From positions 46,382,393-46,446,392 of the forward strand of contig NC_081356.1 of NCBI RefSeq assembly GCF_030684315.1: 64,000 nt of DNA. The letters run 5' to 3'. A program made the position numbers and the translations under genes. This DNA is from Stegostoma tigrinum. Taxonomy: Eukaryota. Of this stretch, positions 1 through 64,000 are shown in pieces; within the stretch, counting starts at the first letter, position 1; every line of letters begins with the position of its first letter. The notes beneath the pieces are model-generated. The model had not been told where the DNA came from and did no database searches. It saw only the letters and a list, made by a program, of their open reading frames with translations.

Positions 1-3000
1 AAATTGTAGTTCGACTATAGAAAAGGTTGAAAATAGGGTGGTCCGAAATAAAGTTTCAGGGAAGCAAGATGGCACCGGCAAGCAAGAAGTTGGATTGAAG
101 TGTGTCTACTTCAATGCCAGGAGCGTCCGGAATAAGGTGGGTGAACTTGCAGCATGGGTTCGTACCTGGGACTTCGATGTTGTGGCCATTTCGTAGACAT
201 GGATAGAGCAGGGACAGGAATGGTTGTTGCAGGTTCTGGGATTTAGATGTTTCAGTAAGAACAGAGAAGATGGCAAAAGGGGGGGAGGTGTGGCATTGTT
301 GGTCAAGGACAGTATTACAGTTGCAGAAAGGATGTTTGGGGACTCGTCAACTGAGGTAGTATGGGCTGAAGTTAGAAACAGGAAAGGAGAGGTCACCCTG
401 TTGGGAGTTTTCTATAGGACTCCGAATAGCTCCAGAGATGTAGAGGAAAGGATAGCAAAGATGATTCTCGATAGGAGTGAGAGAGATGGGGTAGTTGTCA
501 CGGGGGACTTCAACTTTCCAGACATTGACTGGAAACACTATAGTTCGAGTACTATAGATGGGTCAATTTTTGTCCAGAGTGTGCAGGAGGGCTTCCTGAC
601 ACAGTATGTAGATAGGCCAACAAGGGGCGAAGCCACATTAGATTTGGTGCTGGGTAATGACCCCAGCCAGGTGTTAGATTTGGAAGTAGGTGAGCACTTT
701 GGTGATAGCGATCACAATTCTGTTATGTTTACTTTAGTAATGGAAAGGGATAGGTATATATCACTGGGCAAGAGTTATAGCTGGGGGAAAGGCAATTACG
801 ATGAAATTAGGCAAGATTTAAGGAGCATAGAATGGGGAAGGAAACTGCAGGGGATGGGCACATTAGAAATGTGGAGCTTATTCAAGGAAAATCTCCTGTG
901 TGTCCTAGATAAATATGTACCTGTCAGGCAGGGAGGAAGCTGTAGAGTGCGGGAGCCGTGGTTTACGAAGGAGGTGGAATCTCTGGTCAAGAGGAAGAAG
1001 GCGGCTTATGTTAGGATGAGATGTGAAGGCTCACTTTGGGCACTTGAGGGCTACGAGGTTGCCAGGAAAGACCTAAAGAGAGAGCTCAGAAAAGCCAGGA
1101 GGAGACATGAGAAGTTGTTGGTGGATAGGATCAGGGTAAAGCCTAAGGCTTTCTATAGGTATTTAAGGAATAAAAGAATGACGAAAGTAAGATTAGGCCC
1201 AATCAAGGATAGTAGTGGTAAGTTGTGTGTGGAGTCAGATGAGATAGGGGAAGCGCTAAATGAATATTTTTCAACAGTATTCACTCTAGAAAACAACAAT
1301 GTTGTCGAGGAGAATACTGAGATACAGGCTACTAGACTAGGTGGGATTGAGGTTCACAAGGAAGAGGTATTAGAAATCCTTCAGAAGGTGAAGATAGATA
1401 AGTCCCCTGGGCCGGATGGGATTTATCCTCGGGTCCTCTGGGAAGCCAGGGAGGAGATTGCCGAGCCTTTGGCATTGATCTTTAACTTGTCATTGTCTAC
1501 AGGAATAGTGCCAGATGACTGGAGGATAGCAAATGTGGTTCCCCTGTTCAAGAAGGGGAGTAGAGACAACCCTGGTAATTATAGACCAGTGAGCCTTACC
1601 TCAGTTGTTGGTAAAGTGTTGGAAAAGGTTATAAGGGATAGGATTTATAATCATCTAGAAAAGAATAAATTGATTAGGGATAGTCAGCATGGTTTTTTGA
1701 AGGGAAGGTCGTACCTCACAAACCTTATTGAGTTCGTTGAGAAGGTGACCAAACAGGTCGATGAGAGTAAACCGGTTGATGTGGTGTATATGGATTTCAG
1801 CAAGGCGTTCGATAAGGTTCCCCACAATAGGCTATTGTGCAAAATGCGGAGGAATGGAATTGTGGGAGATATAGCAGGTTGGGTCGGAAATTGGCTTGCT
1901 GAAAGAAGACAGAGGGTGGTAGTTGATGGGAAATGTTCATTCTGGAGACCAGTTACTAGTGGTGTACCGCAAGGGTCGGTGTTGGGTCCACTGCTGTTTG
2001 TCATTTTTATAAATGACCTGGATGAGGGCATAGAAGGATGGGTTAGTAAATTCGCAGATGACACTATGGTCGGTGGAGTTGTGGATAGTGACAAAGGATG
2101 CTGTAGGTTGCAGAGAGACATAGATAAGCTGCAGAGCTAGGCTCAGAGGTGGCAAATGGAGTTTAATGCAGACAAGTGTGAGGTGATGCACTTTGGTAGG
2201 AGTAACCGGAAGGCAAATAACAGGGCTAATAGTAAGATTCTTAGCAGTGTAGATGAGCAGAGAGATCTCGGTGTCCATGTACACAGATACTTGAAAGTTG
2301 CCACCCAGGTTGACAGGGCTGTTAAGAAGGCATACAGTGTTTCAGCTTTTATTAATAGAGCCAATTTCCGACCCAACCTGCTATATCTCCCACAATTCCA
2401 TTCCTCCGCATTTTGCACAATAGCCTATTGTGGGGAACCTTATCGAACGCCTTGCTGAAATCCATATTCACCACATCAACCGGTTTACTCTCATCGACCT
2501 GTTTGGTCACCTTCTCAACGAACTCAATAAGGTTTGTGAGGTACGACCTTCCCTTCACAAAACCATGCTGACTATCCCTAATCAATTTATTCTTTTCTAG
2601 ATGATTATAAATCCTATCCCTTATAACCTTTTCCAACACTTTACCAACAACTGAGGTAAGGCTCACTGGTCTATAATTACCAGGAACCAAGATCGGTACA
2701 AAACTCTGGTGCGGCCGCATTTGGAGTGTTGTGTACAGTTCTGGTCACCCCATTATAAGAATGATGTGGAAGCTTTGGAAAGGGTGCAGAGGAGATTTAC
2801 TAGGATGTTGCCTGGTATGGAGGGAAGGTCTTACGAGGAATGGCTGAGGGACTTGAGGCTGTTTTCCTTAGTGAGAAGAAGGTTGAGAGGTGACTTAATT
2901 GAAATATATAAAATAATCAGACCGTTAGATAGGGTGGATAGGGAGAGCCTTTTTCCTTGGATGGTGACGGCGAGCACGAGGGGGCATAGCTTTAAATTGA

Positions 3001-3247
3001 GGGGTGAAAGATATAGGACAGATGTCAGAGGTAGTTTCTTTACTCAGATAGTAGTAAGTGAATGGAACGCTTTGCCTGCAATGGTAGTAGATTCGCCAAC
3101 TTTAGGTACATTTAAGTCGTCATTGGACAAGCATATGGACGTACATGGAATAGTGTAGGTTAGATGGGCTTGAGATCGGTATGACAGGTCGGCACAACAT
3201 CGAGGGCCGAAGGGACTGTACTGTGCTGTAATGTTCTATGTTCTATG
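1..3247 (+). mobile_element. CR1-clade LINE, young but disabled (APE endonuclease + RT ORF2, 3' UTR, (TTCTATG)n tail); 5' part extends beyond window
   Basis: Translation gives APE motifs ([34 protein letters not shown]) and RT motifs ([34 protein letters not shown]). In-frame stops at 194-196 (ISETW -> IS*TW) and 2138-2140. Ends TGTTCTATGTTCTATG at about 3247. Confidence 0.97.
2359..2684 (-). repeat. Inverted duplication of CR1 segment 1571-1896 embedded in the same CR1
   Basis: 2359-2684 is the reverse complement of 1571-1896 (ORF 2352..2720 - reproduces the RT peptide), with 2-nt microhomologies AG and GG at the junctions. Confidence 0.95.
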
Positions 3248-4390
3248 ATACCTAGGATATATTATTTTTTGGTCCTCACAGAGGTTTAACTATCTTTTAC
3301 AGCATCTTGACTGCATCTTATTTAGAGTTTTATTAAGGAACTTTTGCATCTGCCTCATTATACATCGGAAGGCATATTGTATGCTTGTAATAGGGATGTA
3401 GGATTAGGAATACCTAAATTAGAAGTGCAAATTCCAATAGCGGTCATGAGAAAACTTAAAGTTCTTGAGGGATCCACAGACAAGATTGCCCATGCCTTTT
3501 TACAGTTTAGTAAGGAGAGTAATATAGAAGAGATGAAGGCTTTATTGAGATTGAAGGTGTTGCATAATGTCTGGACATTCGAAGATGTTGGTGAACTAAA
3601 AGAGAATGGATTAGATATGGAGAAGGAAGGGGAAATTCTGAGCATGTTAAGTGTGAAGTACAGACTCTGGAGGAAGGCAGAAATGCTGAAGTAGATGTCT
3701 TTACAGAGCCAAGGGCTGGAATCAGATATTTTTTAAATGATCAGCTCTCAACCACATGGATTAAGACTGTTATGTATATAAAGACCTCCAAGTTGATAAA
3801 TATATTGCTATTATGATGCAACTTGTATCCCACCATGATTCATGGAAGAATTTCTTGTGATAAGAGATATTGATGATGTGAAGCCTTGTATGAAACACTT
3901 CCTCATATATCTGGGTGATGCCCAGGGGTGAAAAATTCTAGGATTAGAAGGCATAATAAGATATGATCATGAAGAAGTTATATCAATACATGGTAAAGTA
4001 TAGTTGGGTAACTTTCTTAGAAACCCCGATTAAGAGATGAAAATGGAAGATTATGGCAGCCAGATCCGATCTTCCAGAAAAATGCCTCAATTGTGAATTT
4101 AGATGTTACAATGCAATTTGAAAATGAGGATGGAGATTGGAAAAAAACCTGGGAAAGGAAGGTGGAGAAGTATTAGCATTTGAGCACACAGATAATGAGA
4201 TTGACTAAAAGAGAAGTACTAACATTTTATGGTTTTATAATGGGTGAGGGGGGAAATGGATGGAGGAGAGCAATAAATTTACTGCCCATTTAGGGATTCA
4301 GAATTTTAAAACCTTCGCCCAGGAAATTTCCCATCTGACTACCTCATTGATTCTCAAATTGTGGCACATTTTTAGTGACTGCTAAGATTA
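3248..4390 (+). mobile_element. R2-clade (RLE-type) non-LTR retrotransposon, decayed C-terminal part, interrupted 5' by the CR1
   Basis: IPRIYY...LHLPHYTSEGILYA...GLGIPKL (RT thumb); decayed CCHC knuckle CEALYETLPHISG*CP..SRIRRHNKI (3841-3965); RLE motif GRLWQPDPIF...LDVTMQFE...RKVEKY (4024-4175); FYGFIMG..GKW. Multiple stops and frameshifts. Confidence 0.85.
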
Positions 4391-7199: not shown

Positions 7200-7595
7200 C
7201 CTCAGGGTTGTTAGGGAGTTCCAGGATTGTGACTCAGCAACACTGAGGGAACAGTGATATATTTCCAAGTCAGGATAGCGTGTGCCTTAGAGGGGTAATT
7301 GCAAGTGCTGGTGATGTTCAAATGTATCTGCTGCTTTTGTCCCTATATATGGTAGAGGCTGTGGATTTGGAAGGTATTGCTGATGGAGCCATAATCAGTT
7401 ACTGCTGAGGCTTTTATTGATGATACACACTGTTGCTGCTATGAACTGGTGGAAGTAGGAGTGTTTGTTAAAGTGTGTGAATGGAGTGAAAACCAAGTTG
7501 GTTGTTTTGTCCTGAGCAATGTCAAGCTTCTTAAGTGTTGTTGGAGTCAGACTCATCCAGGCACATGGGGTTTATTCCATCAGATTCCTGACTTG
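7200..7595 (-). mobile_element. 3' region of the CR1/L2-group ORF1-less LINE family (same family as 35855-39605)
   Basis: Reverse strand reads ...SFSVA.S..WNSL-like; same sequence as 42860-43140 and 51890-52050. Confidence 0.7.
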
Positions 7596-23314: not shown

Positions 23315-24630
23315 GAGAGATAATGGGAACTGCAGATGCTGGAGATTCCAAGATGATAAAATGTGAGGCTGGATGAACACAGCAGGCCAAGCAGCATCTC
23401 AGGAGCACAAAAGCTGACGTTTCGGGCCTGGACCCTTCATCAGAGAGGGGGATGGGGGGAGGGAACTGGAATAAATAGGGAGAGAGGGGGAGGCGGACCG
23501 AAGATGGAGAGCAAAGAAGATAGGTGGAGAGGGTGTAGGTGGGGAGGTAGGGAGGGGATAGGTCAGTCCAGGGAAGACGGACAGGTCAAGGAGGTGGGAT
23601 GAGGTTAGTAGGTAGCTGGGGGTGCGGCTGGGGGTGGGAGGAAGGGATGGGTGAGAGGAAGAACCGGTTAGGGAGGCAGAGACAGGTTGGACTGGTTTTG
23701 GGATGCAGTGGGTGGGGGGGAAGAGCTGGGCTGGTTGTGTGGTGCAGTGGGGGGAGGGGATGAACTGGGCTGGTTTAGGGATGCAGTGGGGGAAGGGGAG
23801 ATTTTGAAACTGGTGAAGTCCACATTGATACCATATGGCTGCAGGGTTCCCAGGCGGAATATGAGTTGCTGTTCCTGCAACCTTCGGGTGGCATCATTGT
23901 GGCAGTGCAGGAGGCCCATGATGGACATGTCCATTGGGGAAACCAAGCGGAGGCTTGGGGACCGCTTTGCAGAACACCTCCGCTCAGTTCGCAACAAACA
24001 ACTGCACCTCCCAGTCGCAAACCATTTCCACTCCCCCTCCCATTCTCTTGATGACATGTCCATCATGGGCCTCCTGCACTGCCACAATGATGCCACCCGA
24101 AGGTTGCAGGAACAGCAACTCATATTCCGCCTGGGAACCCTGCAGCCATATGGTATCAATGTGGACTTCACCAGTTTCAAAATCTCCCCTTCCCCCACTG
24201 CATCCCTAAACCAGCCCAGTTCATCCCCTCCCCCCACTGCACCACACAACCAGCCCAGCTCTTCCCCCCCACCCACTGCATCCCAAAACCAGTCCAACCT
24301 GTCTCTGCCTCCCTAACCGGTTCTTCCTCTCACCCATCCCTTCCTCCCACCCCCAGCCGCACCCCCAGCTACCTACTAACCTCATCCCACCTCCTTGACC
24401 TGTCCGTCTTCCCTGGACTGACCTATCCCCTCCCTACCTCCCCACCTACACCCTCTCCACCTATCTTCTTTGCTCTCCATCTTCGGTCCGCCTCCCCCTC
24501 TCTCCCTATTTATTCCAGTTCCCTCCCCCCATCCCCCTCTCTGATGAAGGGTCCAGGCCCGAAACGTCAGCTTTTGTGCTCCTGAGATGCTGCTTGGCCT
24601 GCTGTGTTCATCCAGCCTCACATTTTATCA
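23315..24630. mobile_element. Penelope-like element, head-to-head inverted insertion (578-bp arms, 121-bp spacer) with 15-bp TSD
   Basis: Arms 23354-23931 and 24053-24630 mirror each other (mirror ORFs translate identically). GIY-YIG C-terminus IGETKRRLGDRFAEH...EQQLIFRLGTLQPYGIN. TSD TATTGCTTCTCCTAT at 23300-23314 and 24631-24645. Confidence 0.95.
24541..24570 (+). ncRNA. Minimal type-I hammerhead ribozyme motif in Penelope pLTR (mirror copy 23414-23443 on -)
   Basis: CTGATGA-AGGGTCCAGGCCC-GAAAC-GTC: intact core, GGG/CCC stem II, palindromic ACGT at helix III. Stem I is short. Activity untested. Confidence 0.65.
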
Positions 24631-24899
24631 TATTGCTTCTCCTATTTTCTGTTTCTGTGTTTTTATCTCTTCTGATGTAACAAACTGCTTTTCTGGCTTG
24701 GTCAAATTGCTTTTCAAGCTAACGGCAATTTTGAATTCAGATAACCTGATCAGGATGGACAATTAGTTTATTAAATTCTTTATTCAATTTAAATTGCAGC
24801 CCACAACCACCGCCCCTTCATCACCCGATCCACCCAGCCCCTAACCCCAACTTGCCCCAACACCCTAAGTTTGGGTTTGTCAGACAGGGGAAATCAAAT

Positions 24900-25987: not shown

Positions 25988-27960
25988 CATAAGAAACAGA
26001 ACAGGAATAGGCCATTTGGCACTTTGAGCCTACTTGGCAATTCAATAGAATCGTGACTGATTTGACTGTCCTGACTTGCACATTACTTCGTTTTCCACAT
26101 AAAACTTGGTTTACCCTACTGATCAAGATTCCATCTCTCTAATCATAAATATACACAAGGACTCTGCTCCATAGCTTTCTGTGTCAAGAAGTTTCAAAGA
26201 TTTACAACCCTCTGAGAAAAGAAATTCTTCCTCATCTTAAATTGGAACACTTTAATTCCGAGGCCATGCCCTCTAATCTTGGATAAGAGATAATGGGAAT
26301 TGCAGATGCTGGAGAATCCAAGATAATAAAGTGTGAAGCTGGATGAACATAGCAGGCCAAGCAGCATCTCAGGAGCACAAAAGCTGATGTTTCGGGCCTA
26401 GACCCTTCATCAGAGAGGGGGATGGGGAGAGGGTTCTGAAATAAATAGGGAGAGAGGGGGAGGCGGACCGAAGATAGATGGGGAGGTGGAGAGGGGATAG
26501 GTCAGTTTGAGGAGGACGGACAGGTCAAGGAGGCGGTATGAGGTTAGTAGGTGGGAAATGGAGGTGTGGCTTGAGGTGGGAGGAGGTGATAGGTGAGATG
26601 AAGAAAAGATTAGGGAGGCGGTGACGAGCGGGGCTGGTTTTGGGATGCAGTGGGGGAAGGGGAGATTTCGAAGCTTGTGAAGTCCACATTGATACCATTG
26701 GGCTGCAGGGTTCCCAAGCGGAAAATGGGTTGCTGCTCCTGCAACCTTCAGGTGGCATCACTGTGGCACTGCAGGAGGCCAGGATGGACATGTCGTCTAA
26801 GGAATGGGAGGGGCAGTTAAAATAGTTTGCGACTGGGAGGTGCAGTTGTTTGTTGCGAACCGAGTGGAGGTGTTCAGCAAAGCGGTCCCCAAGCCTCCGC
26901 TTGGTTTCCCCAATGTAGAGAAAGCCACAATGGGTACAGTGGATACAGTATACCACATTAGCAGATGTGCAGGTGAATATCTCCTTAATATGGAAAGTCA
27001 TCTTGGGGCCTGGGATGTGGATGAGGGAGGAGGTGTGGTGTCAAGTGTAGCACTTCCTGCGGTTGCAGGGGAAGGTACCAGGTGTGGTTGGGTTGGACAG
27101 AAGTGTGGAGAGGACAAGGGAGTCACGGAGAGAGTGGTCTCTCCGGAAGGCAGGCAAGGGTGGAGATGGAAAAATGCCTTGGGTAGTGGGGTCAGATTGT
27201 AGATGGCGCAAGTGTCGGAGGATGATGCGTTGTATCCGGAGATTGGTGGGGTGGTATGTGAGGACGATGGGGATTCTCTTTTGGCGGATATTGTGGGGGT
27301 GGGGTGTGAGGGATGTGTTGTGGGAAATGCGGGAGACACGGTCAAGTGCATTCTCGGCCACTGCGGGGGGGTAGTTGCGGTCCTAGAAGAAAGTGGACAT
27401 CTGGGATGTGCTTGAGTGGAATGCCTCATCCTGGGAGCAGATGCGGCAGAGGCAAACAAATTGGGAATAGGGGATGGAATCCCTAACCTCATCCTGCCTC
27501 CTTGACGTGTCCGTCCTCCCCGGACTGACCTATCCCCTCTCCACCTCCCCACCTAAACTCTCCTCTCCATCTATCTTCTCCTCTATCCATCCTCGGTCCG
27601 CCTCCCCCTCTCTCCCTATTTATTTCAGAACCCTCTCCCCATCCCCGTCTCTGATGAAGGGTCTAGCCCGAAACGTCAGCTTTTGTGCTCCTGGGATGCT
27701 GCTTGGCCTGCTGTGTTCATCCAGCTTCACACTTTGTTACCTTTGATCTTGGACTCTCCCATGAGGGGAAACGTCTAATCAGCATTTACCCTGTTGAGCT
27801 CCTTTAGAATCATTTATTCCTCAATGAGATCACCTCTCATGCTCCTCAACTCCAAAGAGTAGAGTTCTAAACTGTTTAACCTTTGCTCATAAGGCAGTCC
27901 TTCCATACCATGGATCATCCTAGTGAAACTTCTTTGAGCTTCCTCTAATGAAGTGGTCTC
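25988..27960 (-). mobile_element. CR1 3' part (25988-26285 and 27743-27960) split by a Penelope insertion
   Basis: CR1 3' UTR and ORF2 end continue collinearly on both sides of the Penelope. Confidence 0.75.
26286..27742 (-). mobile_element. Penelope-like element: long - arm (RT C-terminus, GIY-YIG, full pLTR) plus short inverted pLTR (27481-27742)
   Basis: FTCTSANVVYCIHCTHCGFLYIGETKRRLGDRFAEH; RIPIVLTYHP. Hammerhead motifs at 26384-26413 (-) and 27651-27679 (+). ATCTTGGA duplicated at 26276 and 27746. Confidence 0.93.
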
Positions 27961-30070: not shown

Positions 30071-30294
30071 ATAAGAACCAAAAGAACTGTGGATGCTGTA
30101 AATCAAGAACAAAAACAAAGCTCAGCAGGTCTGGCAACATCTGTGGAGGAGAAGACAGAGTTAATGTTTCAGGTCCGGTGACCCTTCCTCAGAACAGTTC
30201 TGAGGAAGGGTCACCAGAAACGAAACTTTAACTCTGTTTTCCCCTCCACAGATGCTGCCAAACCTGCTGAACTTTTCCAGCAACTTTGTTTTTG
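30071..30294. mobile_element. Mini palindromic Penelope-derived element with back-to-back hammerhead motifs and 14-bp TSD
   Basis: Centre GGTGACCCTTCCTCAGAAC-A-GTTCTGAGGAAGGGTCACC; CTGAGGA...GAAAC core on each strand (each with a lesion); TSD CTCGGGATGCCTAT (30057) / CTCAGGATGCCTAT (30295). Confidence 0.88.
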
Positions 30295-30726
30295 CTCAGG
30301 ATGCCTATGTTTGCAACACTGGGCAAAGACGGTTGTTGGTAATTAGGATCCCTTTAAAACTGAAGTTCCTGTGCAGCATTAGATTTCATTTAACTGCTGT
30401 TACAGCTTTCAAAGCTTCTCATAAATAAAGAAAAAAGGAAGGCACAAGAAATATAAAAAAATGAAGATAGAAATAGGATGAGATATTCAACCCTCCACTA
30501 CTCTTTATGACCATGGCTAATTATCGAGCTCAATTCCTTAATTCCGCCCAGCCACCATATTCCTCAATCCCTTTGATCAAAAGAGCTCGATCTACCTCTT
30601 TAAAACACAGAATGTTTTGTCCTCAACCACTTTACTTGGTAGTGAATTCCACAGGCCCACTATTCTCTAAATGAAGAAATTTCTCATCTCAGCCCCAAAA
30701 GGTTTACACATTATTCTTAAGCTATC

Positions 30727-31248
30727 AGAGATAATGGGAGCTGCACATGTTGGAGAATCTGAGATAACAAAGTGTGGAGCTGGATGAACACAGCAGGCCA
30801 AGCAGCACCTTAGGACCACAAAAGCTGATGTTTTGGGCCGAGACCCTTCATCAGAAAAGGCGGATGGGGAGAGGGTTCTGAAATAAATAGGGAGAGAGGG
30901 GAAGGCGGATTAAAGGTGGATAGAGGAGAAGATAGGTGGAGAGGAGAGTATAGGTGGGGAGGTAGGGAGGGGATAGGTCAGTTCAGGGAGGATGGACTGG
31001 CCAAGGGGGCGGGATGAGGTTAGTAGGTGGGAAGTGGAGGTGCAGCTTGAGGTGGGAGGAGGGGATAGGTGAGAGAAAGAACAGGTTAGAGGGGCGGGAA
31101 AGAGCTGGGCTGGTCTTGGGATGCAGTGAGGGGGAGGGAAGATTTTGAAGCTTGTGAAATCCACATTGATATCATTGGGCTACAGGGTTCCCAAGAGGAA
31201 TGTGAGTTGCTGTTCCTGCAACCCTCGGGTGGCATCATTGTGGCACTT
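30727..31248 (-). mobile_element. 5'-truncated Penelope (GIY-YIG C-terminus + full pLTR)
   Basis: Same pLTR as 23315; AAGCTATC repeated at both flanks. Confidence 0.88.
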
Positions 31249-31613
31249 AAGCGACTCAAGCTATCATTCCGGTTCGAGACATCTCCATGATAGGGAACAT
31301 TCTTCCCTCATCGAAACTGTCCGGTCCTGTTATAATTGTGTAGGGTTCTATGGGAGCCCTCCTCATTCTTCTAAACTCAAATGTATGTAGTGCTAACTGG
31401 CTTAATCGCTTCTCATATGTCAATCGTGCCATACCAGGAATTAACTTGATAAAGATTTGCCACGTTCCCTTTATAAGAAAAACATTCTTTCTCAGGTAAA
31501 GAGACCAAAACTGCACCTAATATACTATGAGCGGCCTCACCAGTGCATAATTACAGCAAGACATCTCGTTCCTGTACTAAGATCCTCTCACAATGCAAGC
31601 CAGCATACAGTTT

Positions 31614-32964
31614 AGAGATAACAAAGTGTGGAGCTGGATGAACACAGCAGGCCAAGCAGCACCTCCTCCTACCCACCTTCCCGCAAAAAATCCATCCCCT
31701 ATTCCTAATTCCTGCACCTCTACGGCATCTGCTCCCAGGATCAGGCATTCCACTCCCGTAGATCCCAGATGTCTTCGTTCTTCAAGGACTGCAACTTCCC
31801 CCCGCAGTGGTTGAGAACGCCCTCGACCGTGTCTCCTGCATTTCCCATAACTCATCCCTCACACCCCAGCCCCGCAATAACCGCCAAAAGAGAATCCCCA
31901 TCATCCTCACATACCACCCCACCAACCTCCAAATATAACGCATCATCCTCTGACACTTCCGCTACCTACGATCTGACCCACCACCGAAGACATTTTTCCA
32001 TCGTCACCCTTGTCTGCCTTCCGGAAAGACCACTCTCTCCGGGACTCCCTTGTCCGCTCCACACTCCTGTCCAACCCTACCACACCCGGCACTTTTCCCT
32101 GCAACCGCAGGAAGTGCTACACTTGTCCCCACACATCCTCCCTCACTCACATCCCAGGTCCCAAAATGACATACCACATCAAGTAGATGTTCACCTGCAC
32201 ATCTGCCAATGTGGTATACTGCATCCGCTGCACCCATTGTGTCTTCGTCTACATTGGGGAAACCAAGCAGAGGCTTGTGGACGGCTTTGCAGAACAACTT
32301 ATACTTGGTTTGCAACAAACAACTGCACCTCCCAGTCGTGAACCATTTCAACTCCCACTCCCATTCCTTAGACGACATGTCCATCCTGGGCCTCCTGCGG
32401 TGCCACAACAATGCCACCCGAAGGTTGCAGGAACAGCAACTCATATTCCACCTGGGAACCCTGCAGCCCAATGGTATCAATGTGGATTTCACAAGCTTCA
32501 AAATCTCTCCTCCCTCCCCCCACTGCATCCCAAAACCAGCCCAGCTCGGCCCCGGCTCCCTAACCTATTCTTCCTCTCACCTATCCCCTCCTCCCACCTC
32601 AAGCCGCACCACCATTTCCTACCTCCTAACCTCATCCCATCCCCTTGACCTGTCCATCCTCCCCAGACTGACCCATCTCCTCCCTACCTCCCCACCTATT
32701 CTCACATGTACAGGCTCCATGCCCGCCCCTTTAACTTGTCTGTCTCCTCTCCACCTATCTTCTCCTCTATCCACATTCGATCCGCCTCCCCCTCTCTCCC
32801 AATTTATTTCAGAACCCTCTCCCCACCCGTCTTTTCTGATGAAGGGTCTAGGTCCGAAACATCAGCTTTTGTGGTCCTAAGATGCTGCTTGGCCTGCTGT
32901 GTTCATCCAGCTCCACACTTTGTTTTGTTGGATTCTCCAGCATCTGCAGTTCCCATTATCTCCC
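31614..32964 (+). mobile_element. Penelope-like element: short inverted pLTR piece (31614-31662) plus RT C-terminus, GIY-YIG and full pLTR; 14-bp TSD
   Basis: FTCTSANVVYCIRCTHCVFVYIGETKQRL...EQQLIFHLGTLQPNGIN; hammerhead motif at 32836; TSD CCAGCATACAGTTT / CCAACATACAGTTT. Confidence 0.92.
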
Positions 32965-35690: not shown

Positions 35691-36110
35691 ATTTGTTTCC
35701 TCATTGGTGTTGTGGTCTCAGGGACAGCTTTTGGCAGAGGCGTCATTTCAGGTCCATTCGGCAGCAGCAGGAATTGCTTCAGCATGCTTCCTCTTTGGCG
35801 TTGCAGCCTCAGGGACAGCTTTAGCGGTCAAACTACACAATGATACCAATCTTTATCCAGGATAGTGTCAAACATCTTGAGTGTATTCAGAGCCGCACCC
35901 ATTCAGGCAAGTACAAATATTCTATCACACTCCTGATTTGTAGCTGGAAAGAGACACCGGGAAGATTAGATGCCAATTACTCCCGACAGGTTTCCCAACT
36001 TCTTACCTGCTCTTGAAACCACACTATTAATTTGGCTGGCCCAGTTAAGTTTCTGGTTTATGGTAACCCCTGGACTGTTGATAGCAGATGATTAAATGAT
36101 AATGTTGAAT

Positions 36111-36410
36111 CATAGAATCCCTACAGTGTGAAAACAGGCCCTTCAGCTCATACCGACCGTCAGAGCATCCCACCCGGACCGATTCCCCTATAACCCACCT
36201 AATCTAAATATACCTGAACACCACGGGAATTTGGCATGGCCAATCCACCTAACCTTTGGCATGTGGGAGGAAAACTGGAGCACTTGGAGAAAGCCCACGC
36301 AGATATGAGAAGAACGTGCAAACTCCACACAGTCATCCGAGGGTGGAATCGAACCTGGGTCCCTGGCACTGTGAGGGAGCAGTGCTAACCACTGAGCCAC
36401 CATGCCACCC
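36111..36410 (-). mobile_element. HE1-type tRNA-derived V-SINE
   Basis: GGTGGCTCAGTGGTTAGCACT...GGTTCGATTCC head, TGTGTGGAGTTTGCACGTTCT V-domain, CR1-like tail. Confidence 0.9.
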
Positions 36411-37289
36411 ATATTGCTGTCAAATATCAAGTGGAGGCTGTTCCATTCTTTGGAATCATTCTTCAGTCTTTTCCTAGCACTTATATGGTACTTACCAGCT
36501 CAAGCCTGAGTATTGTCAAGGTTTTGCTGCATTTAGAAATGGACTGCTTCATTATCTGAGGATCTATGAATGGCGCTTAACATTATGCAATCATCAGCGA
36601 ACATCTGACTTAAAAGAATCCATGATGAAGGGAAGTCCTTGATGATGTATGTGAAGATGGTTGAACCTAAGACACTACCCCACGGAACTCCTGCATAGCT
36701 GTCCTGGAGATGAGATGACTGACCTCCAAAAACCACCACTATCTTCCTTGGGTCATGTATGGCTCCAACCACCAGAGAGTTTGCCCCCTGATACCCATTT
36801 ATTCCAGTTTTGCTGGGGCTCCTTGATGCCACACCCAGTTGAATGCAGCCTTGATGTCAAGAGCTGGCACTTTCACCTCACCTCTGGAATTCAGCTCTTT
36901 TGTCATGCTTGAACCAAGACTGTAATGAGACCAGGAGCTGAGTGGCCCTGGTGGAACCCAAACTGGGCATCACTGAGCGGGTGCCACTTGATAGCACTGT
37001 TGATGATACCTTTCATCACTTTACTGATGATCAAGAGTTCACTGATGGGGTGGTAATTGACCAAGTTGGATTTGTCCTGCCTTTTCTGTACAGGACAGAC
37101 TTTGGCAATTTTCCATATTGTTGGGCAAATACCAGTGTTGGAACTCTACTGGAACAACTTGGCTGCTGGGACAACAGGTTCTGGAGCATATTGCTGGAAT
37201 GTTGTCAGGGCCCATAGCCTTTGCAGTATCCAGTGTCTCCAACCATTTTTATCACATAGAGTACATTGAATAAGCTAAAGACTGGTATC

Positions 37290-37614
37290 TGTAATCATAC
37301 AATCCCTACAGCATGGGAACAAGCCATTTGGTCCAACAAGTCCACACTGCCCCTCCGAAGAGCATCGTACACAGGCCAATTCCCCTACCCCTGTATTTCC
37401 CAAATGTAATCCACCTAACCTAAACATCCCTGGGTAGTATGGACAATTTAAGCATGGCCAATCCACCTAACCTGCACATCTTTGCACTGTGGGAAGAAAC
37501 CCACACAGACATGGGAAGAATGTGCAAACTCCACACAGTCGCCTGAGGTTGGAATCGAACCCAGGTCCCTGGCACTGTGAGGCAGCAATGTTAACCATTG
37601 AGCCACCATGCCAT
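37290..37614 (-). mobile_element. HE1-type tRNA-derived V-SINE
   Basis: Same head, V-domain and tail as 36111. Confidence 0.9.
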
Positions 37615-38216
37615 CCATTGATTCCTGGGGAATGCTGGGGGCCACTGGAGGAGGCCAAGATTGATCATCTACTTGGCACTTCTGGCTGAAGATTGCTAAG
37701 AAAGCCTTATCTTTTGCACTGATCTGCTGGCCTCTTCCATCATTAAGGATGGGGATATTTGTGGAGCTTCCTCCTCCAATGAGTTGTTTAATTGTCCACC
37801 ATCTTTCAAGACTGATGTGACAGGACTGCAGAGCTTACATTTGATCTGTTGTTTGTGGGACCACTTAGTGCTGTCTATCATTTGCTGCTTCTGCTGTTTG
37901 GTGTGAAAGTAGTCCTGTCTGGTGGCTTCACCAGTTTGATATCTCATCTTCAGTTATGCCTGGTGCTGCTTCAGGCACACCCTTGTGCATTCTCCATTAA
38001 ACCAGGGTTGATCCCCTAGCTTGATGGTAATGGTTGAGCAGGGGATATGCCAACCCATGAAGTTACAGATTGTGCTAGAGTAAATTTTTGCTGCTGTTGA
38101 TGGCCCATGGTGCTTCATATTTGCATAGTGTTGAGTCGCTAGATCTGTGCAAAGCCTGTCCCATGTAGCACAGTGATAGTGCCACACAACACAATGGAGG
38201 TTATTCTCAATGTAAA

Positions 38217-38579
38217 GGGGAGGCGATGACCTAGTGGTATTATCACTGGACTGTTAATCCAGAGACCCAGACAATGTTCTAGGGACCAGAGTTCCTATCC
38301 TGCCATGGCAGAAGGCGGCATTTGATTTCAATAAATATCTGGAATTAAGAGTCTAATACTGACCATAAATCCATTGCTGAATGTTGGGAAAAACCCATCT
38401 GGTTCACTAATGTCCTTTAGGGAAGGAAACTGCCATCCTTACCTGCTCTGGTCTACATGTGACTCCAGACCCACAGCAATGTGGTTGACTCTTAACTGCC
38501 CTCTTGGCAATTTGTGTTGGGCAATAAATGCTGCCTTGCCAGTGATGCCCTCATCCTATGAATGAATAAAGAAATAAAA
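38217..38579 (+). mobile_element. tRNA-headed SINE equal to the 5' head/body plus 3' tail of the ORF1-less LINE
   Basis: A-box TGACCTAGTGG; body CCCATCTGGTTCACTAATGTCCTTTAGGGAAGG...GTTGACTCTTAACTGCCC shared with 39320-39605 (-); tail GGGCAATAAATGCTG...ATGAATGAATAAA shared with 42860-42920 (-). Confidence 0.88.
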
Positions 38580-39609
38580 TTGCAGAACTTCATCTCCACA
38601 AGAACAATGCGGTGGTCACTCTTACCAATACTGTCATGGACAGATGCAACTGCAGCTGGTAGATTGGTAAGGGTGTTTTTTTCTCTCTTGTTTTTATCCC
38701 TCACCCATCTGCTGCAGACACATTCTAGCAGCTATGTCCTTTTGAACCTGAACAGTTCAATCAGTAGTACTGCTACTGAGACACTCTTGGTGTTGGACAA
38801 TGAAATCTCCCACCCAAAGTACATATTGTGCCCTTGCCATTGTCAGTACTTTCGCCAACTGTTGCTCAATATGGAGGATTACTGATTCAATAGCTGAGGG
38901 AGGATGGTGTATGATAATCAGCAGGACATTCCCTTGTCCAAACTTCATGGATCTAGAGTCAATGTTGAGGACTCCCAGAGCAGCTTCTTCTCAACTGAAT
39001 ACCACCATGCTGTCACCTCTGTTGGGTCTATTCTGTTGGTGAGACAGGACATATCCAGAGATAGTGTTGCTGGTGTATGTGACATTGTCTTTAAGGTAGT
39101 ATTCTATAAGTATGATTATGTCAGACTGTTGCTTAACTGGTCTGTGAGACAGCTCTCCTAATTTTGGCACTAGCCTTGGGGTATTAGTGACGAGGAATTT
39201 TCAGGCTCAACAGCGTTGTTTCTGCTGTTGTCTTTTCTGGTGCATAGGTCAATGCCAGGCGATCTGTCTGGTTTAATTTCTTTCAGACTTTGTAGGAATC
39301 GATAAAATTGAATGGCTTTCAGGGGGCAATTAAGAGTCAACCACATTGCTGTGGGTTTAGAGTCACAAGTAGGCCAGACCAGGTGAGGATGGCAGATTTC
39401 CTTCCCTGAAGGACATTAGTAAACCAGATGGGTTTTTCCTGACAATTGACATGATTTCATGGTGATTAGTCGACTTTTAATTACAGATTATTTGTATTGA
39501 ATTCAAATCCCATCATCTTCCGAAGCGGGATTTGAACCCAGGTCCCCAGAACATTTGCTGAGTTTCTGGATTAATTGTCTAGCAATAATACCAATAGCCT
39601 ATCCCTGAT

Positions 39610-41200
39610 TCTCACATCATATTTGTTCCCTTTACAAACTGTGTTTTTCCTTTAAATCTGTGCCCGCTAGCTCTTGGTCTTGTTACGCGTGAGAATAGAT
39701 TCTCCTTACCTACTCCATCATGATCAGGCATGATATTGAGAGTCCCAATCATTCCTTGAACTATTCTCATAAACAATGTGTTCAGTTCCTTTGTCCAGAT
39801 TGTTAATGTATAACGTGAATAGTTGTTCCCTGCAGAACTCCACAAGTCACTGGCTGCCATCTTTGAGAAGACTCCTTTATCCCTACTCTCTGCTTTCTGA
39901 TTGTCAGCCAGTCCTCTATCCATGATAGTGCCTTGCCCCTATCATCATGGCTCTTATCTTATTAAGTAGCCTTCAATACAGCATCTTGTAAAAGGCCTTT
40001 TGGAAATCTAAATAGATCACATCCACGGGCTCTCCTTTGTCAAACTTGCTCATTATCTCTTAAAAGAATTCTAACAGATTTGCCAGGCATGGCTACCCCT
40101 TGATTAAGCCATGCTGATTGTCCCTATTTTACATGCACTTCCATGTACTCTGTTATCTCAAATTAATAGTGGAATCAAAAATCTTGCCGATGACTGAGGT
40201 CAGGCTAACCAGTATTTTGTCTTCTGTCACCCTTCCTTCTAAAACAGGGGCATTACTTCAACGATTTTCCAGTCCTCTGGGACCCTCTCTGACTCCAGTG
40301 ATTCCTGAAGGATCGCCATCAATTTCTCAGAATCTCCACAGCTAACTCTTTTAGAGTATTGAGGGTAATCCATCCAGTCCGGGTGATTTATCCATCTTCA
40401 GACTTTATAGCTTCCTCGGTACCTTCACCTTAGTGATAGCATTTTACTCACCTCTGCCCCCGACTCTCTTGATGTTCTGGTATGCTGCTGGTGTCTTCCA
40501 TAGGGAAAACTAGTGCAATGTACCTAATTCAGATCCTTCACCATTTCTTTGTTCCCCATTACTACCTCTCCGTCCTCATTTTCCAGTGGCACAATGTCCA
40601 CTCTTGAATTTCTCTTGCCTTTAGATATCTAAAACTCTTGCAGTCTTCTTTATAACTACTACTTAGCTTACTCTCATATCTCATCTTCATCCCCACTTAT
40701 TGCTTTTGTAGGTATCCTCTGCTGGTTTTTTTTCAGGTTTTTTCTCCCCCACTAATCTTCACTGCATTGTATGCTATCTCTTTACTTTTATACTGTGCCT
40801 GACTTCCCTTGTCAGCCATGATTACCTCATCCTCCTTGTCATATGTTGCTTCTTCCTTGGGATGAATTTCTACTGGGAGTCCCGAATTGCCCCAGAAACT
40901 CCTGCAATTGCTATTCCACCGCCTTCCCTCCTGGGGTGTAGACTGAATTCTATCATATTATGGTCAGTGCTCCGTTGGGCATTTAGTTTCCTCATTTAAA
41001 TCATTAACACATATTGTGAACAGTTGGTGTCCTAGTACTGATCTCTGTGGTACCCAACCAGTCACTGCCTGCCATTCAATATTTACTCACTTATTCCTAC
41101 TGTTTGTGTTTGTTTCCTCTCTGTTGACCAGTTTTTTTTAATCCATCTCATTACACCACCCTCAGTCATATGTGCTTTAATTTTACACATTAATCTCCAG
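39610..41200 (-). mobile_element. Decayed CR1 fragments
   Basis: RT and APE-linker sequence on - strand (YLDFQKAF, QHG, NY..VSLTS), with several deletions. Confidence 0.7.
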
Positions 41201-42859: not shown

Positions 42860-43140
42860 ATTTATATTCTTCCTGGGTCTGAGGATTGATGGCTAGACCA
42901 GTATTTATTGCCTTTTTTTTGTCCTTGAGAAACTTGTGAGCTGCCTTCTGAACTACTGCAATCCACTTGTTGTAGATAGGTCCAGAATAAGATTAGGGAG
43001 GGAGTCCTGGGATTCTGACTCAGTGCCATTGAAGAAAACATTATATATTTCCAACTCAGCATGGTGAGTGGCTTAGAGGGGTTTTAGTTTTTCTCCCACC
43101 TATCTGCTGCCTTGTCCTTCAGGATCACTGTGGTAATGGA
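42860..43140 (-). mobile_element. 3' end of the ORF1-less LINE family
   Basis: ORF end (..KAAH..LK) followed by the GGCAATAAATACTGGTCTAGCC tail. Confidence 0.75.
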
Positions 43141-53467: not shown

Positions 53468-54985
53468 TGTTCCATGGTGAATCCCACCATGGCAGATGGT
53501 GATATTTTAATTCACTGAAAATAAGTTAAAATTTAATGGTGGCTATTTAACTGCTGTTGATTGAGAAGGAAATCTACCATTCTTACCTGGTTTGACCTAC
53601 ATGCAACTCCAGACCATAGAGCAATGTGGCTAGTTATTGACCACTCTCTGAAGTTCCTAGAGAGCCACTGAGTTGTATCAAACTGCAACAAAGCCTAAAG
53701 AAAAGAATGAGGACAGGCCTACCACCTAGCATTAATCTAGGCACCAAAAAAGATGAGTAAATACAACCCTGTCAATCCTGTAAAGTCCTCCTTATTAACA
53801 ACTTATGACGAAATGTGGAGAGCAACAGCCTGATATAGTCACAATCTGGAAGTCACAAGGGGTGACACAGTGGCACAGTGGTTAGCGGTTAGCACTGCTG
53901 CCTCACAGCACCAGGAAACTGGTATCGATTCCACCCTCAGGTAACTGTGTGGAGTTTGCACATTCTCCCTGTATTTGCGTGGGTTTCCTTCGGGTGCTCC
54001 GGCTTCCTCCTACAGTCCAAAGATGTGCAGGCTAGGTGGAATGGATTGGCCATGCTAAATTCCCTGTAGCATTCAGGGATGTGTAGATTAGGTGGGTTAT
54101 TGGGGAATGGATCTGAGTAGGATGCTCTGAAGGTCAGTGTGGACTTGTTGGGCCAAAAGGCCTGTTTCAGCACTGTAGGGATTCTATGATTCATTAAGTC
54201 TTACCTGAAGAAACCAGTCCCATCAGAAGGTGTGGCATATATTCTGAAGATGTACTTTGATCTGTGACATTAACTTTGAACAGCATGATGTTTCATGGCA
54301 TTAGGTCAAATATGGACAAAGAATCTTCCTGCTGATTACTTCTACCAAACCACCATCACCCCTTCAAGCTGGTGAATCTGTGCTTCTTCAAGTTGAACAC
54401 CATTTGGAGGATGCATTCAGGATCTAAGTGCACAGAATGTATTCCGAATAGAGTCATAAATGTCAATCATCAACAGTAGCTCAGTAAAACTAAATGAGCT
54501 AGCCCATTCACAAAGAACATAGTTGCTTGGCTGTGAGTGCGTGTGGCAGGCAGTGAGGGAACTAACATGGAAGGAAAGCTTACTTCACTTCATCCTAATT
54601 GATCTACCTGAAATAAATGAGTCCTTTCATGATAGTTTTGGCAAGAGTGAGCACTGCATGGAGTCCTATCTTCACATTTTTTCTATTTGTTTGCATGATG
54701 CAAGCATTATTGGCTAGCCAACATTTATTATCCATTCTTACTACCCTCGAGAAAGCACTTGTGAGCTGCCAATCTATACTGAAGATGCCCTCCACCATGT
54801 TGTATGGCACTGTCACTGTGTAAATGAGAGAGACTATGAATAGATCCAGCAATTCAAAACTGACCATCCATGACATACTGTGGGCCGTCAGCAAATGCAG
54901 AGTTGCATTAAACCACAACCAATAGCAACATGACCCACTATATCTCCTGCTGTACTATAACCATCAAGCGATGGGATTATGCAAA
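53468..54985 (+). mobile_element. Second copy of the tRNA-headed ORF1-less LINE (5' part), interrupted by an HE1 SINE and an inverted 3' tail piece (54680-54790)
   Basis: AATCCCACCATGGCAGATGG...GGAAATCT..CTTACCTGG...GCAATGTGG body runs into CCTGTAAAGTCCTCCTTATTAAC...CAACAGCCTGATATAGTC (APE start), then ESVLLQVEHHLEDA. Confidence 0.75.
53859..54192 (+). mobile_element. HE1-type V-SINE
   Basis: GTGGCACAGTGGTTAGC head, V-domain, GGGATTCTATGATTC tail. Confidence 0.9.
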
Positions 54986-55974: not shown

Positions 55975-56732
55975 TTGATTGATTTACTGTCACATGTACC
56001 AAAAAACCATGAAAACATTTGTTTAAAGCGGTACACACAGATCATAATAAACGAAGGGTGTACAGATCAAAAAGACTTAGTCAGAGGCATGCAGGTTACA
56101 TTGTGCAGGGCGTGCGCTAGGCGAGATCAACATTAGCAAGATCAGTGTTATTTGAGGCTAGAGAGTCTATTCATCAATAATGGCTGGGAAAAAGCTGTTC
56201 CTGAACCAGCTCGTGCATGTGACAGGCTTCTGTGTCTTCTGCCTGACAAAAGAGGTTATTGGAGATCATTACTTGGGTGTGATGGGCCTTTGATGATGTT
56301 GGCAGCCCTTCTGTGACAGCAAGCCATGTAAATGGAGTCCATGGATGGAAGGTTGGTTTCCGTGATAGTCTGAGCTGTGCACACCACCTTCTGTAGATTC
56401 TTACTGTCCTGGGCAGAGCACTTGCCATGCCAGACCGTTTGCACCCATACAGTATGCTTTCAATGGTGCATCTGTAGAAGTTAGTGAGGGACCTTATGGA
56501 CATGCCAAATTTTCTGAGCTACCTGAGGAAGAAGAAGCATTGTTGTGCCTTCTTGACTGTTGCATCTACATGGGAAGCCCAGGTCAGGTTGTCGGTATTA
56601 TGTCCCTGAAGAACTTGATGCTCTTCACCCTCTCAACCTCAGTTCTGTTGATGCAGGTGGGGATGTGGTCTCCTCTTCTCTTTCTGAAGTCAAAGGTCAG
56701 TTCTTTAATTTTGCCAACAATGAGAGAGAGAT
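55975..56732 (-). mobile_element. Rex1/Babar-clade LINE 3' part
   Basis: LTNFYRCTIESIL.GC..WHGKCSAQD.K.LQKVV.TAQTI...LPS...IIK.PSHP. Confidence 0.8.
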
Positions 56733-57651
56733 TGGTCAAACATTTCATCTAAAACTTTGACAATAACTCTGTCACTGATTAGATTTTCTTTTAAGCTGCC
56801 ATACTCTTATTCTCTGTAAGTCTAGAGACAAATGTTAAAAGTATCAATTCTTACCCCTATTGCTCAGCATGCTGATTAAATTTAGCCTGCTCCACTTTTT
56901 TTTTCTTACAGGTTGAAATTGGCATAATGTGCTGCCAGACCTGCTGAGCTTTTCCAGCAACTTCTGTTTTTAATGCCACCAGGCTGTTGTTTTGCCACAT
57001 AATATTCTTGGCCTTGTTATGCTGCTGAAGCATTTTTTAAAGCACCTGATGAGGTAACGAAAACGTTAACTTTATTTGAGAAGCATTTTACTGTTGTGTC
57101 ATTTTGCCATGAAGTTACACAAGACAAAATGAGCACGTTGCAGTGCATCACTCCCTAATCTGATGTAAACTGCATAATTAACATATAAGAATTTCAGACA
57201 TAACTCTTGAACAACCTGCTTTTAATAATATAAACACATATACCTCTACATCCCTATGTTCCAGCCAATTCCTTTAGAATAGCGTCAGTTCTTTAAAATC
57301 GCGTGTCTTTGTTACGCCCACCAAAACACATCAATTGCCATATCTGCATTAAATTTCATCTGCCAAGTGTCTAGCAACTCCACCAGCCTGCCTATGCCCT
57401 TTGAAGTTTACGACTATCCTCACAATTCACAATACTTCCAACTTTCGTGCATTCCACACATTTTGAAATTGTGAACTTTAACAGGGATGACAAAATGTAT
57501 TAATCTTAATATGTTAGGTAATTATTATCTGTATGTCTGAAAACTGAAAAGACTTTTAAAAATCAAAGGTCTTTTGAAAGAGGACCTGATCAGATTTGTG
57601 GACAAGCTAAGTTCTTCATCTGAAGGAACCAAAAATGCAAAGTTTTACTTT

Positions 57652-63519: not shown

Positions 63520-64000
63520 AACATTCCAGCAAAACATTAAGGCTCATGCTTTAGAACTAGGCAAGGTGTCCCAATCCAGCTACAACACTAGCATATACAT
63601 GATAATGTGAAAAATTATTCGGATATGTTGAGTTCACAAGATGACAAGTTGAGTTGGCGACCTACTAACGCATCAGTGTGCTTGAGGTCAATAATAAAGT
63701 GATGGAAGTTATAATCAACACTGGTATCAAGTGGTAGTTTATCAACAATAAACTGCTCACTAATATCCAGTTGTGGGTTCCACCAAATCCACTCAGCTCC
63801 TGACCTTATTACAGCCTTGTTTCAAACATAGAGAAAACAACTGAACTCCAGAGGTGAGTTGACAGTATCACCTCTTGACACCAAGACAGCATTTGACCAA
63901 ATACAGCATCAAAGAGCCCTAGCAACAATGGAGGAAATGGGAATTAGTCAGAAATCTCTCTGCTGTTTGGAGGCCATTGATTACAGTGGAAGATAGCGTT
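63520..64000 (+). mobile_element. RT region of the ORF1-less LINE family (continues beyond window)
   Basis: QSSYNTSIY...GFHQIHSAPDLITALFQT...LNSRGE...LDTKTAFD...HQRALA.MEEMGI. Confidence 0.8.

Follow-up and report, generated by a model that had tools for sequence, protein, structure and literature searches.

Long interspersed nuclear elements (LINEs) depend, in the textbook division, on RNA polymerase II (pol II) for their transcription and short interspersed nuclear elements (SINEs) on RNA polymerase III (pol III) (PMC10886601), a division that a LINE with a SINE promoter in sharks and rays would break. Here we describe a LINE family that begins with a tRNA-derived head, taking as our starting point a decayed copy on the minus strand of a 64,000-nt stretch of the Stegostoma tigrinum genome (contig NC_081356.1, positions 46,382,393 to 46,446,392; the window). 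Among described systems that resemble it, R2 elements have a single frame and cap-independent translation. R2 RNA does not come from a pol II promoter of its own, as is proposed here, being a 28S cotranscript with a ribozyme-made 5' end, and R2 also makes template jumps to tRNA (PMC3414825); however, R2 belongs to another clade, has another endonuclease and is site-specific, and its tRNA additions are single events and no fixed feature of the family. Bipartite SINEs and short internally deleted elements (SIDEs; PMC5786205; PMC3414825) are short, non-autonomous joins of LINE 5' and 3' ends, like a 365-nt sister SINE of our family, in which the two ends of an autonomous LINE are joined in just the way that defines a SIDE, but reports of them are confined to RTE, Ingi, Vingi and R2, and the tRNA head there is on the SINE and not on its parent. 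The TRIMp3 elements Cassandra, Helenus and Ajax (PMC10886601) are likewise retrotransposons with an acquired small-RNA pol III promoter, but are of the long terminal repeat type, non-autonomous, non-coding and 311-1,263 bp long. SacSINE1, a tRNA-headed shark SINE, and the DeuSINEs (PMC5499810) differ in having a Deu body and an L2-type tail; the body described here has no Deu motif, so it belongs to a different element.

The family itself is already on file as an elasmobranch Zenon sequence (PMC13343379, supplementary table 2), with the entries RhiTyp_Zenon-1, CarCar_, ScyCan_, SquAca_1-3 and HypSab_Zenon-1 spanning three shark orders plus Squaliformes, and one ray. The RhiTyp entry carries the LINE-type letters of our family and is 3,293 nt long, against 3,298 core columns in our alignment, and the elasmobranch entries and the window family alike have no open reading frame 1 (ORF1) and an A-rich tail. 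All seven entries, from five species, begin with the head and body (first 400 nt, by eye); the A box fits in 7/7 and the B-box decamer in 6/7, and the six decamers have no other match among ~1,000 CR1-group consensuses (first 400 nt each), while a 17-nt body motif is found in all seven rows and in none of the others. Hagfish Zenon-1 and -2 and coelacanth Zenon-1 differ, having another start and runs of at least four Ts in the first 400 nt, the coelacanth 5' end being of low confidence. Zenon, reported from elasmobranchs, coelacanth and hagfish, is always without ORF1 and has a poly-A tail, and together with Rex1 it "universally lacked ORF1" (PMC13343379); the absence of an ORF1 upstream of the endonuclease, which a preliminary description made from the letters of the window had stressed, therefore stands but is not unusual.

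The head, the sister SINE and a deficit of T runs are not described in the accessible parts of PMC13343379, the main text of which has no match for tRNA, promoter or polymerase III and has SINE once, in a reference title; a whale-shark preprint, as far as available, names CR1-Zenon-like LINEs and gives no structure. We found no description of an autonomous tRNA-headed or pol III LINE in a literature search outside which lay the Repbase and Dfam notes and subscription journals. A conserved architecture on a catalogued family is thus real and apparently unremarked, and a conserved head on an autonomous LINE would be undescribed in the papers searched even if pol II did the transcription.

In the window, the element runs on the minus strand from ~39611 down to 35851 in the order head, body, spacer, APE endonuclease, linker and reverse transcriptase (RT), with broken frames. 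Its parts, with a second copy, are as follows.

39500..39611, minus strand: tRNA-derived head, the 5' end of the LINE; sister copies begin at the identical base, with unrelated flanks
39591-39601, minus strand: degenerate A box, inside the head
39528-39538, minus strand: B box GGTTCAAATCC, inside the head
39321..39499, minus strand: ~175-nt body, common to the free SINE; LINE-type at diagnostic sites, not a Deu domain
39198..39320, minus strand: LINE-only spacer; the family AUG here is mutated in the window copy
38583..39197, minus strand: APE endonuclease region, broken; Pfam PF14529 on sister copies
38217..38582, plus strand: nested free ~365-nt SINE, head and body followed by the LINE 3' tail; antisense to the LINE
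37631..38218, minus strand: region of the APE-RT linker, broken
37296..37625, minus strand: nested tRNA-headed SINE, unrelated
36490..37295, minus strand: reverse transcriptase region, broken; Pfam PF00078 on sister copies
36106..36420, minus strand: second nested SINE of the same type as that at 37296..37625
35851..36100, minus strand: C-terminal part of the frame; homology stops at 35851
53480-54977, plus strand: second copy at ~70% identity, with the head end, body, spacer, APE and part of the linker; interrupted by SINEs

Both boxes lie where the preliminary description had placed them, and the succession it had read, from the body through some 130 nt into APE and RT, is borne out, though the frames are broken; the first APE motif follows ~130 nt past the body end at 39321. 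Its recurrence of the body-to-APE junction near 53468-53858 (+) corresponds to the second copy, in which the order is the same. The window copy is dead, with many stops and frameshifts, three nested SINEs within its 3.75-kb span and ~440 nt of the family 3' end gone; the first ~8 nt of its head have decayed, and it diverges from the family column majority by 11-29% depending on the piece. The two nested SINEs at 37296..37625 and 36106..36420 are presumably HE1-like. Further fragments at ~70%, from the same or a related LINE, lie at window positions 7210-7595, 42861-43125 and 63557-63996.

Surveys of the 3.2-Gb assembly support the head as an integral, inherited part of a once-autonomous LINE family of ~3.3 kb and not an independent SINE insertion. 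A spacer-plus-APE query without the head gave 4,406 first-look candidates, of which 40 were scored and 30 fetched; the body lay directly upstream in 29/29 other loci, with a head match in 27/29. With APE alone as query (5,087 candidates), the body was present in 21/29 loci, and the remaining eight, two of which are one duplicated locus, were 5'-truncated at differing endpoints in unrelated flank. No headless 5' end is common to these eight bodiless loci; other repeats recur in some of their flanks, but their distances from the junction do not match, so the family has no second 5' end. Conversely, a query with the LINE-type head led into LINE-only sequence at 29/29 other loci, 27 of them reaching APE and two carrying internal deletions. 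These counts of head-to-APE continuity, which the preliminary description had proposed making, back its view that this is no chance SINE beside a LINE, and its autonomous element of ~3.2 kb agrees with the length of the family. A different 5' UTR or an ORF1 upstream of APE, or a target-site duplication (TSD) and 3' tail of the head's own, would have spoken against that view; neither was found, and there is neither an alternative common 5' end nor room upstream of APE for an esterase or other ORF1.

The 5' ends, which that description had suggested mapping, are uniform, with the family start fixed ~10 nt before the A box. Among 99 anchored loci (of 101 distinct ones), 62 start at most 15 nt from +1, 19 elsewhere in the head, 13 within the body and five beyond it, proportions that do not give the full-length fraction, as chaining permits gaps and the queries mostly sit close to the 5' end. 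Complete copies of ~3.26 kb have an identical start base after unrelated flanks and finish with a short A-rich stretch (A9 in the majority columns), in keeping with the poly-A tail of Zenon. The mapping of TSDs was less successful: repeats of at least 5 nt occur in four of 14 complete copies, compared with 20% of mismatched pairs, and none reaches 7 nt. This frequency is at chance level, and we therefore make no claim of TSDs. Copies differ from the column majority by 7-14%, and the family is old.

A free SINE of ~365 nt shares the head; in it, nt 1-282 of the LINE run straight into the LINE's final ~85 nt (reference ~3177-3260), and the head common to both is the only promoter of this SINE. 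Over 39597-39321 of the window LINE the nested SINE copy is 80% identical, and 17 diagnostic columns divide LINE heads (n=32) from SINE heads (n=20), with the window LINE carrying 15/17 LINE-type letters, the nested SINE 16/17 SINE-type letters, and one of the 20 free SINEs LINE-type letters. The LINE head has therefore evolved as a lineage of its own, which again argues against a chance insertion, and the split must be old because at several sites the SINE letters match the LINE entries of other species (by eye). On the simplest view the sister SINE would be an old offshoot of the headed LINE that arose by internal deletion, although the LINE may instead have captured a SINE; on the former view, plain internal deletion would be a direct route to a tRNA-headed SINE. 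It alone fits the usual bounds of a SINE (<700 nt, non-coding), which the headed element exceeds. A longer SINE variant with the spacer was not seen, as 0/29 other spacer-picked loci go directly to the tail. For annotation, the consequence is that thousands of LINE copies will have their first 282 nt masked as SINE.

Two single copies, L369:1501-1991 and L385:1501-2005 (reverse strand), are headed LINEs internally deleted to SINE size, from nt 343 to 3093 and from nt 360 to 3122, respectively, with breakpoints that differ from those of the common SINE. Two free SINEs, L109 and L118, combine LINE-type body letters with SINE-type tails, mosaics that suggest a possible exchange between the LINE and SINE lineages. 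Our first idea for the body, a Deu domain in a SINE equivalent to SacSINE1, was ruled out by comparison with the published Deu alignment (PMC7245038) and by a motif test, in which none of 57 heads and bodies matched either of two 11-nt Deu motifs with up to two mismatches. Nor did the body resemble any other named domain among those available for comparison.

As in tRNA-derived SINEs, the 5' end of family elements holds internal A and B boxes, a strict A box persisting in 17/32 and a strict B box in 12/32 of the decayed LINE heads. The B-box pattern has three matches in the window compared with 0.8 expected (7/100 shuffles reach three), and all three sit in tRNA-headed retroposons. The head aligns to genuine tRNAs of the same genome over the D-arm/anticodon and T-arm, with an insert of ~18 nt and best z values of 4.0-7.1 against shuffles (six heads, compared with Cys, Lys, Thr and Trp tRNAs only). 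ARAGORN called no tRNA gene and no cloverleaf at the head, Rfam gave no tRNA match there, and the consensus fold of 23 decayed heads is a single 8-bp hairpin over the A box (-2.9 kcal/mol).

The element is a ~3.27-kb single-frame APE-RT LINE in which only 430 nt precede APE. Stop-free pieces of sister copies match Pfam Exo_endo_phos_2 (PF14529) and RVT_1 (PF00078) in 4/4 cases. In the majority columns one frame opens at column 297 and extends to RT, where the next frame takes over and stays open up to column 3227; the switch falls at a G run of variable length (core column ~2203), apart from which 925 codons are open. This frame-breaking run is 1 nt shorter in 13/28 copies, long in 12 and otherwise in three, and no linked column was found that would make it a subfamily marker. 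Nine other columns split about evenly between two letters, which suggests that there may be two subfamilies. No in-frame AUG precedes the endonuclease, the earliest lying at column 807, within APE, and an out-of-frame AUG at column 349 in the spacer, kept in 19/25 copies, opens 35 codons that overlap the start of APE.

Four Ts form the pol III stop signal, as used in PMC2666806, and the sense strand of the headed LINE has no T4 and four T3 in 3,298 majority columns (30 copies), compared with 4.6 and 22.4±4.2 expected from shuffles and 1.9 and 12.4±3.4 from a Markov model, an absence of stop signals that read-through by pol III would require. A runs are close to expectation in the same columns. 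Under codon-aware nulls, three T3 contrast with 22.6 or 11.4 expected, and no T4 with 4.5 (P=0.009) or 1.5 (P=0.20), and Phe codons are TTT:TTC 1:16 against 73:114 in the other two-fold pairs (p=0.007). The same pipeline applied to an old CR1 yields 26 T3 and six T4 in 2,340 columns, a young CR1 has five T4 in 647 codons, and all 74 metagenome relatives with frames of at least 450 aa (from 80 loci, six with shorter frames being dropped) hold 3-54 T4 each. A further comparison comes from a family sampled at window 56180-56750 (-) and at loci L291-L315 and L326-L355, short of its 5' end, which we take from its motif to be Rex1, the other ORF1-less CR1-group lineage. Rex1 has T4 and T5 confined to the 3' UTR, and differs from the headed LINE over the whole element at p=0.02. 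Four proteins, P0015-P0018, near an amphioxus protein, have a Phe content of 0.016-0.018, against 0.018 in the headed LINE and a mean of 0.040 in 71 relatives, and the DNA encoding these four might avoid T in a similar way.

The tRNA-derived head is the family's own 5' end, and the proposal that the active element was transcribed from it by pol III, the most likely of the explanations considered, is evenly poised. In that case pol III would start at +1, read through 3.3 kb and stop at a T run in flanking DNA. With no AUG in frame ahead of the endonuclease, the uncapped RNA would, we propose, be translated by non-standard initiation, and the protein would copy its own RNA and that of the SINE by target-primed reverse transcription without an ORF1 protein. 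Pol III transcripts have been retrotransposed with ORF2p alone, where a pol II-driven Alu required ORF1p, and reverse transcription free of ORF1p would fit, because pol III RNAs need ORF2p only (PMC2666806). The head would probably have been gained once, before the shark/ray split, through a template jump onto a tRNA-derived RNA. The fuller proposition, which we hold tentatively and rate slightly lower, is that elasmobranch Zenon is an autonomous coding retrotransposon with an internal tRNA-type pol III promoter, in effect a SINE that mobilises itself, with a 3.3-kb terminator-free, uncapped and AUG-less mRNA, a form kept stable since before the split of sharks and rays, and a SINE of which it is the parent. 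Such an element would be a naturally occurring test case for whether a translated retrotransposon RNA of 3 kb can be made by pol III, and whether ORF1p then becomes dispensable.

Several observations weigh against transcription by pol III. A length of 3.3 kb is far beyond that of known pol III elements, SINEs and pol III TRIMs measuring 100-1,263 bp, which is put down to the limited processivity of pol III (PMC10886601), and an uncapped RNA would still need translation, by an initiation route that is itself conjectural. The loss of ORF1 needs no pol III explanation, because headless Zenon lineages are also without ORF1 (PMC13343379). Every copy examined is broken, the longest stop-free piece in 30 copies being 294 aa; for a stingray, three intact copies out of 612 are listed in PMC13343379. 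The T4 deficit taken alone is non-significant under the Markov (P=0.15) and synonymous-shuffle (P=0.17-0.20) models, and Rex1 of the same genome has no T4 and seven T3 in 760 majority codons, shows equally strong avoidance of T where a T3 would result (7:52 vs 3:36, p=0.74) and differs from the headed LINE in coding T3 rate at p=0.10. Thus the depletion of TTTT that the preliminary description had suggested checking is there, but because Rex1 coding DNA is also T4-free, it is not specific to the headed element in coding DNA. Contigs from four sequencing runs of guessed type covered all 30 bins of a sister copy, with none spanning it, and contigs do not show starts or strand, so they speak for neither side.

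A distinctly less probable, though possible, alternative is that the head was inherited while pol II produced the full-length RNA, whether from a promoter internal to the head or body or by host read-through; this RNA would have been capped, with translation by re-initiation or frameshift from the conserved upstream AUG and pol III serving the SINE only. In the literature, LINEs are given as pol II transcripts and pol III elements as short (PMC10886601), Rex1 is an example of T-poor coding DNA that is free of T4 and has no known head, and the AUG before APE, kept in the 19/25 copies and visible in most published entries, suits scanning ribosomes. Yet the LINE lineage of sharks and a ray has retained both the A and the B box while the letters that separate the two have diverged (by eye), and the T avoidance of the headed LINE against its own background (p=5e-6) is far stronger than that of Rex1 (p=0.02). 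AATAAA is missing from the family majority columns, 3' end included, whereas in the entries of other species it lies (by eye) ~110 nt after the start, an arrangement that is hard to square with pol II.

It is unlikely that the head acted mainly as RNA, either as a tRNA mimic cut at the 5' end from a longer host transcript or as a recruiter of ribosomes. Sharp, uniform 5' ends and the absence of an in-frame AUG before the endonuclease agree with such a role, and 5' ribozymes are known in R2, RTE and Ingi (PMC5786205; PMC3414825), but ARAGORN sees no cloverleaf, the conserved letters are those of the promoter boxes, and the 23-head fold offers just its one hairpin, a weak objection given that the copies are decayed. 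More improbable still, and already largely refuted, is the addition of heads copy by copy through template jumps from SINE RNA, or a headed form that was the passenger of a headless master. R2 makes such jumps to tRNA and snRNA (PMC3414825), some free SINEs carry LINE-type letters (the one in 20, L109 and L118), and about half of the copies have the shorter G run; against this, all copies have a single junction, LINE heads form their own lineage at the 17 diagnostic sites (32 LINE vs 20 SINE heads), truncated copies share no headless 5' end, and the majority frame is open for 925 codons but for the G run, itself unlinked to other columns. A chance SINE insertion next to a truncated LINE is refuted by the locus surveys, the diagnostic sites, the 5'-start mapping and the published entries of five species, even though SINEs do insert in this LINE, three of them inside the window copy.

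In an RT tree of 41 rows, with no labelled Zenon protein among them, four shark copies form a clade (100/100) apart from shark CR1 and are weakly grouped (81/85) with amphioxus, brittle-star and unnamed proteins of ~950 aa, many of the unnamed ones on contigs of 3.1-4 kb. No A-plus-B-box pattern was found upstream of the frame in the 80 metagenome loci (~30-48% RT identity), a set that excludes the DNA of the closest proteins, P0002 and P0009-P0025. Ten further loci, L316-L325, have eukaryotic-type APE-RT frames inside contigs of bacterial metagenome-assembled genomes and are likely host contamination.

The window holds other repeats. In a young CR1 at 197-3247, an open frame of 647 codons precedes an inverted duplication of 326 nt (1571-1896 vs 2359-2684, 99%). 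Positions 23349-23931 and 24053-24635 form a 583-nt inverted repeat of 99.8% identity, with related copies at 26283-27747 and 30722-32962; we take the repeat around 23349-24635 to be Penelope-like (GIY-YIG-type). Finally, a palindromic repeat at 30137-30255 has a below-threshold match to mir-3202 on both strands, and a similar hairpin element is inserted in L093.

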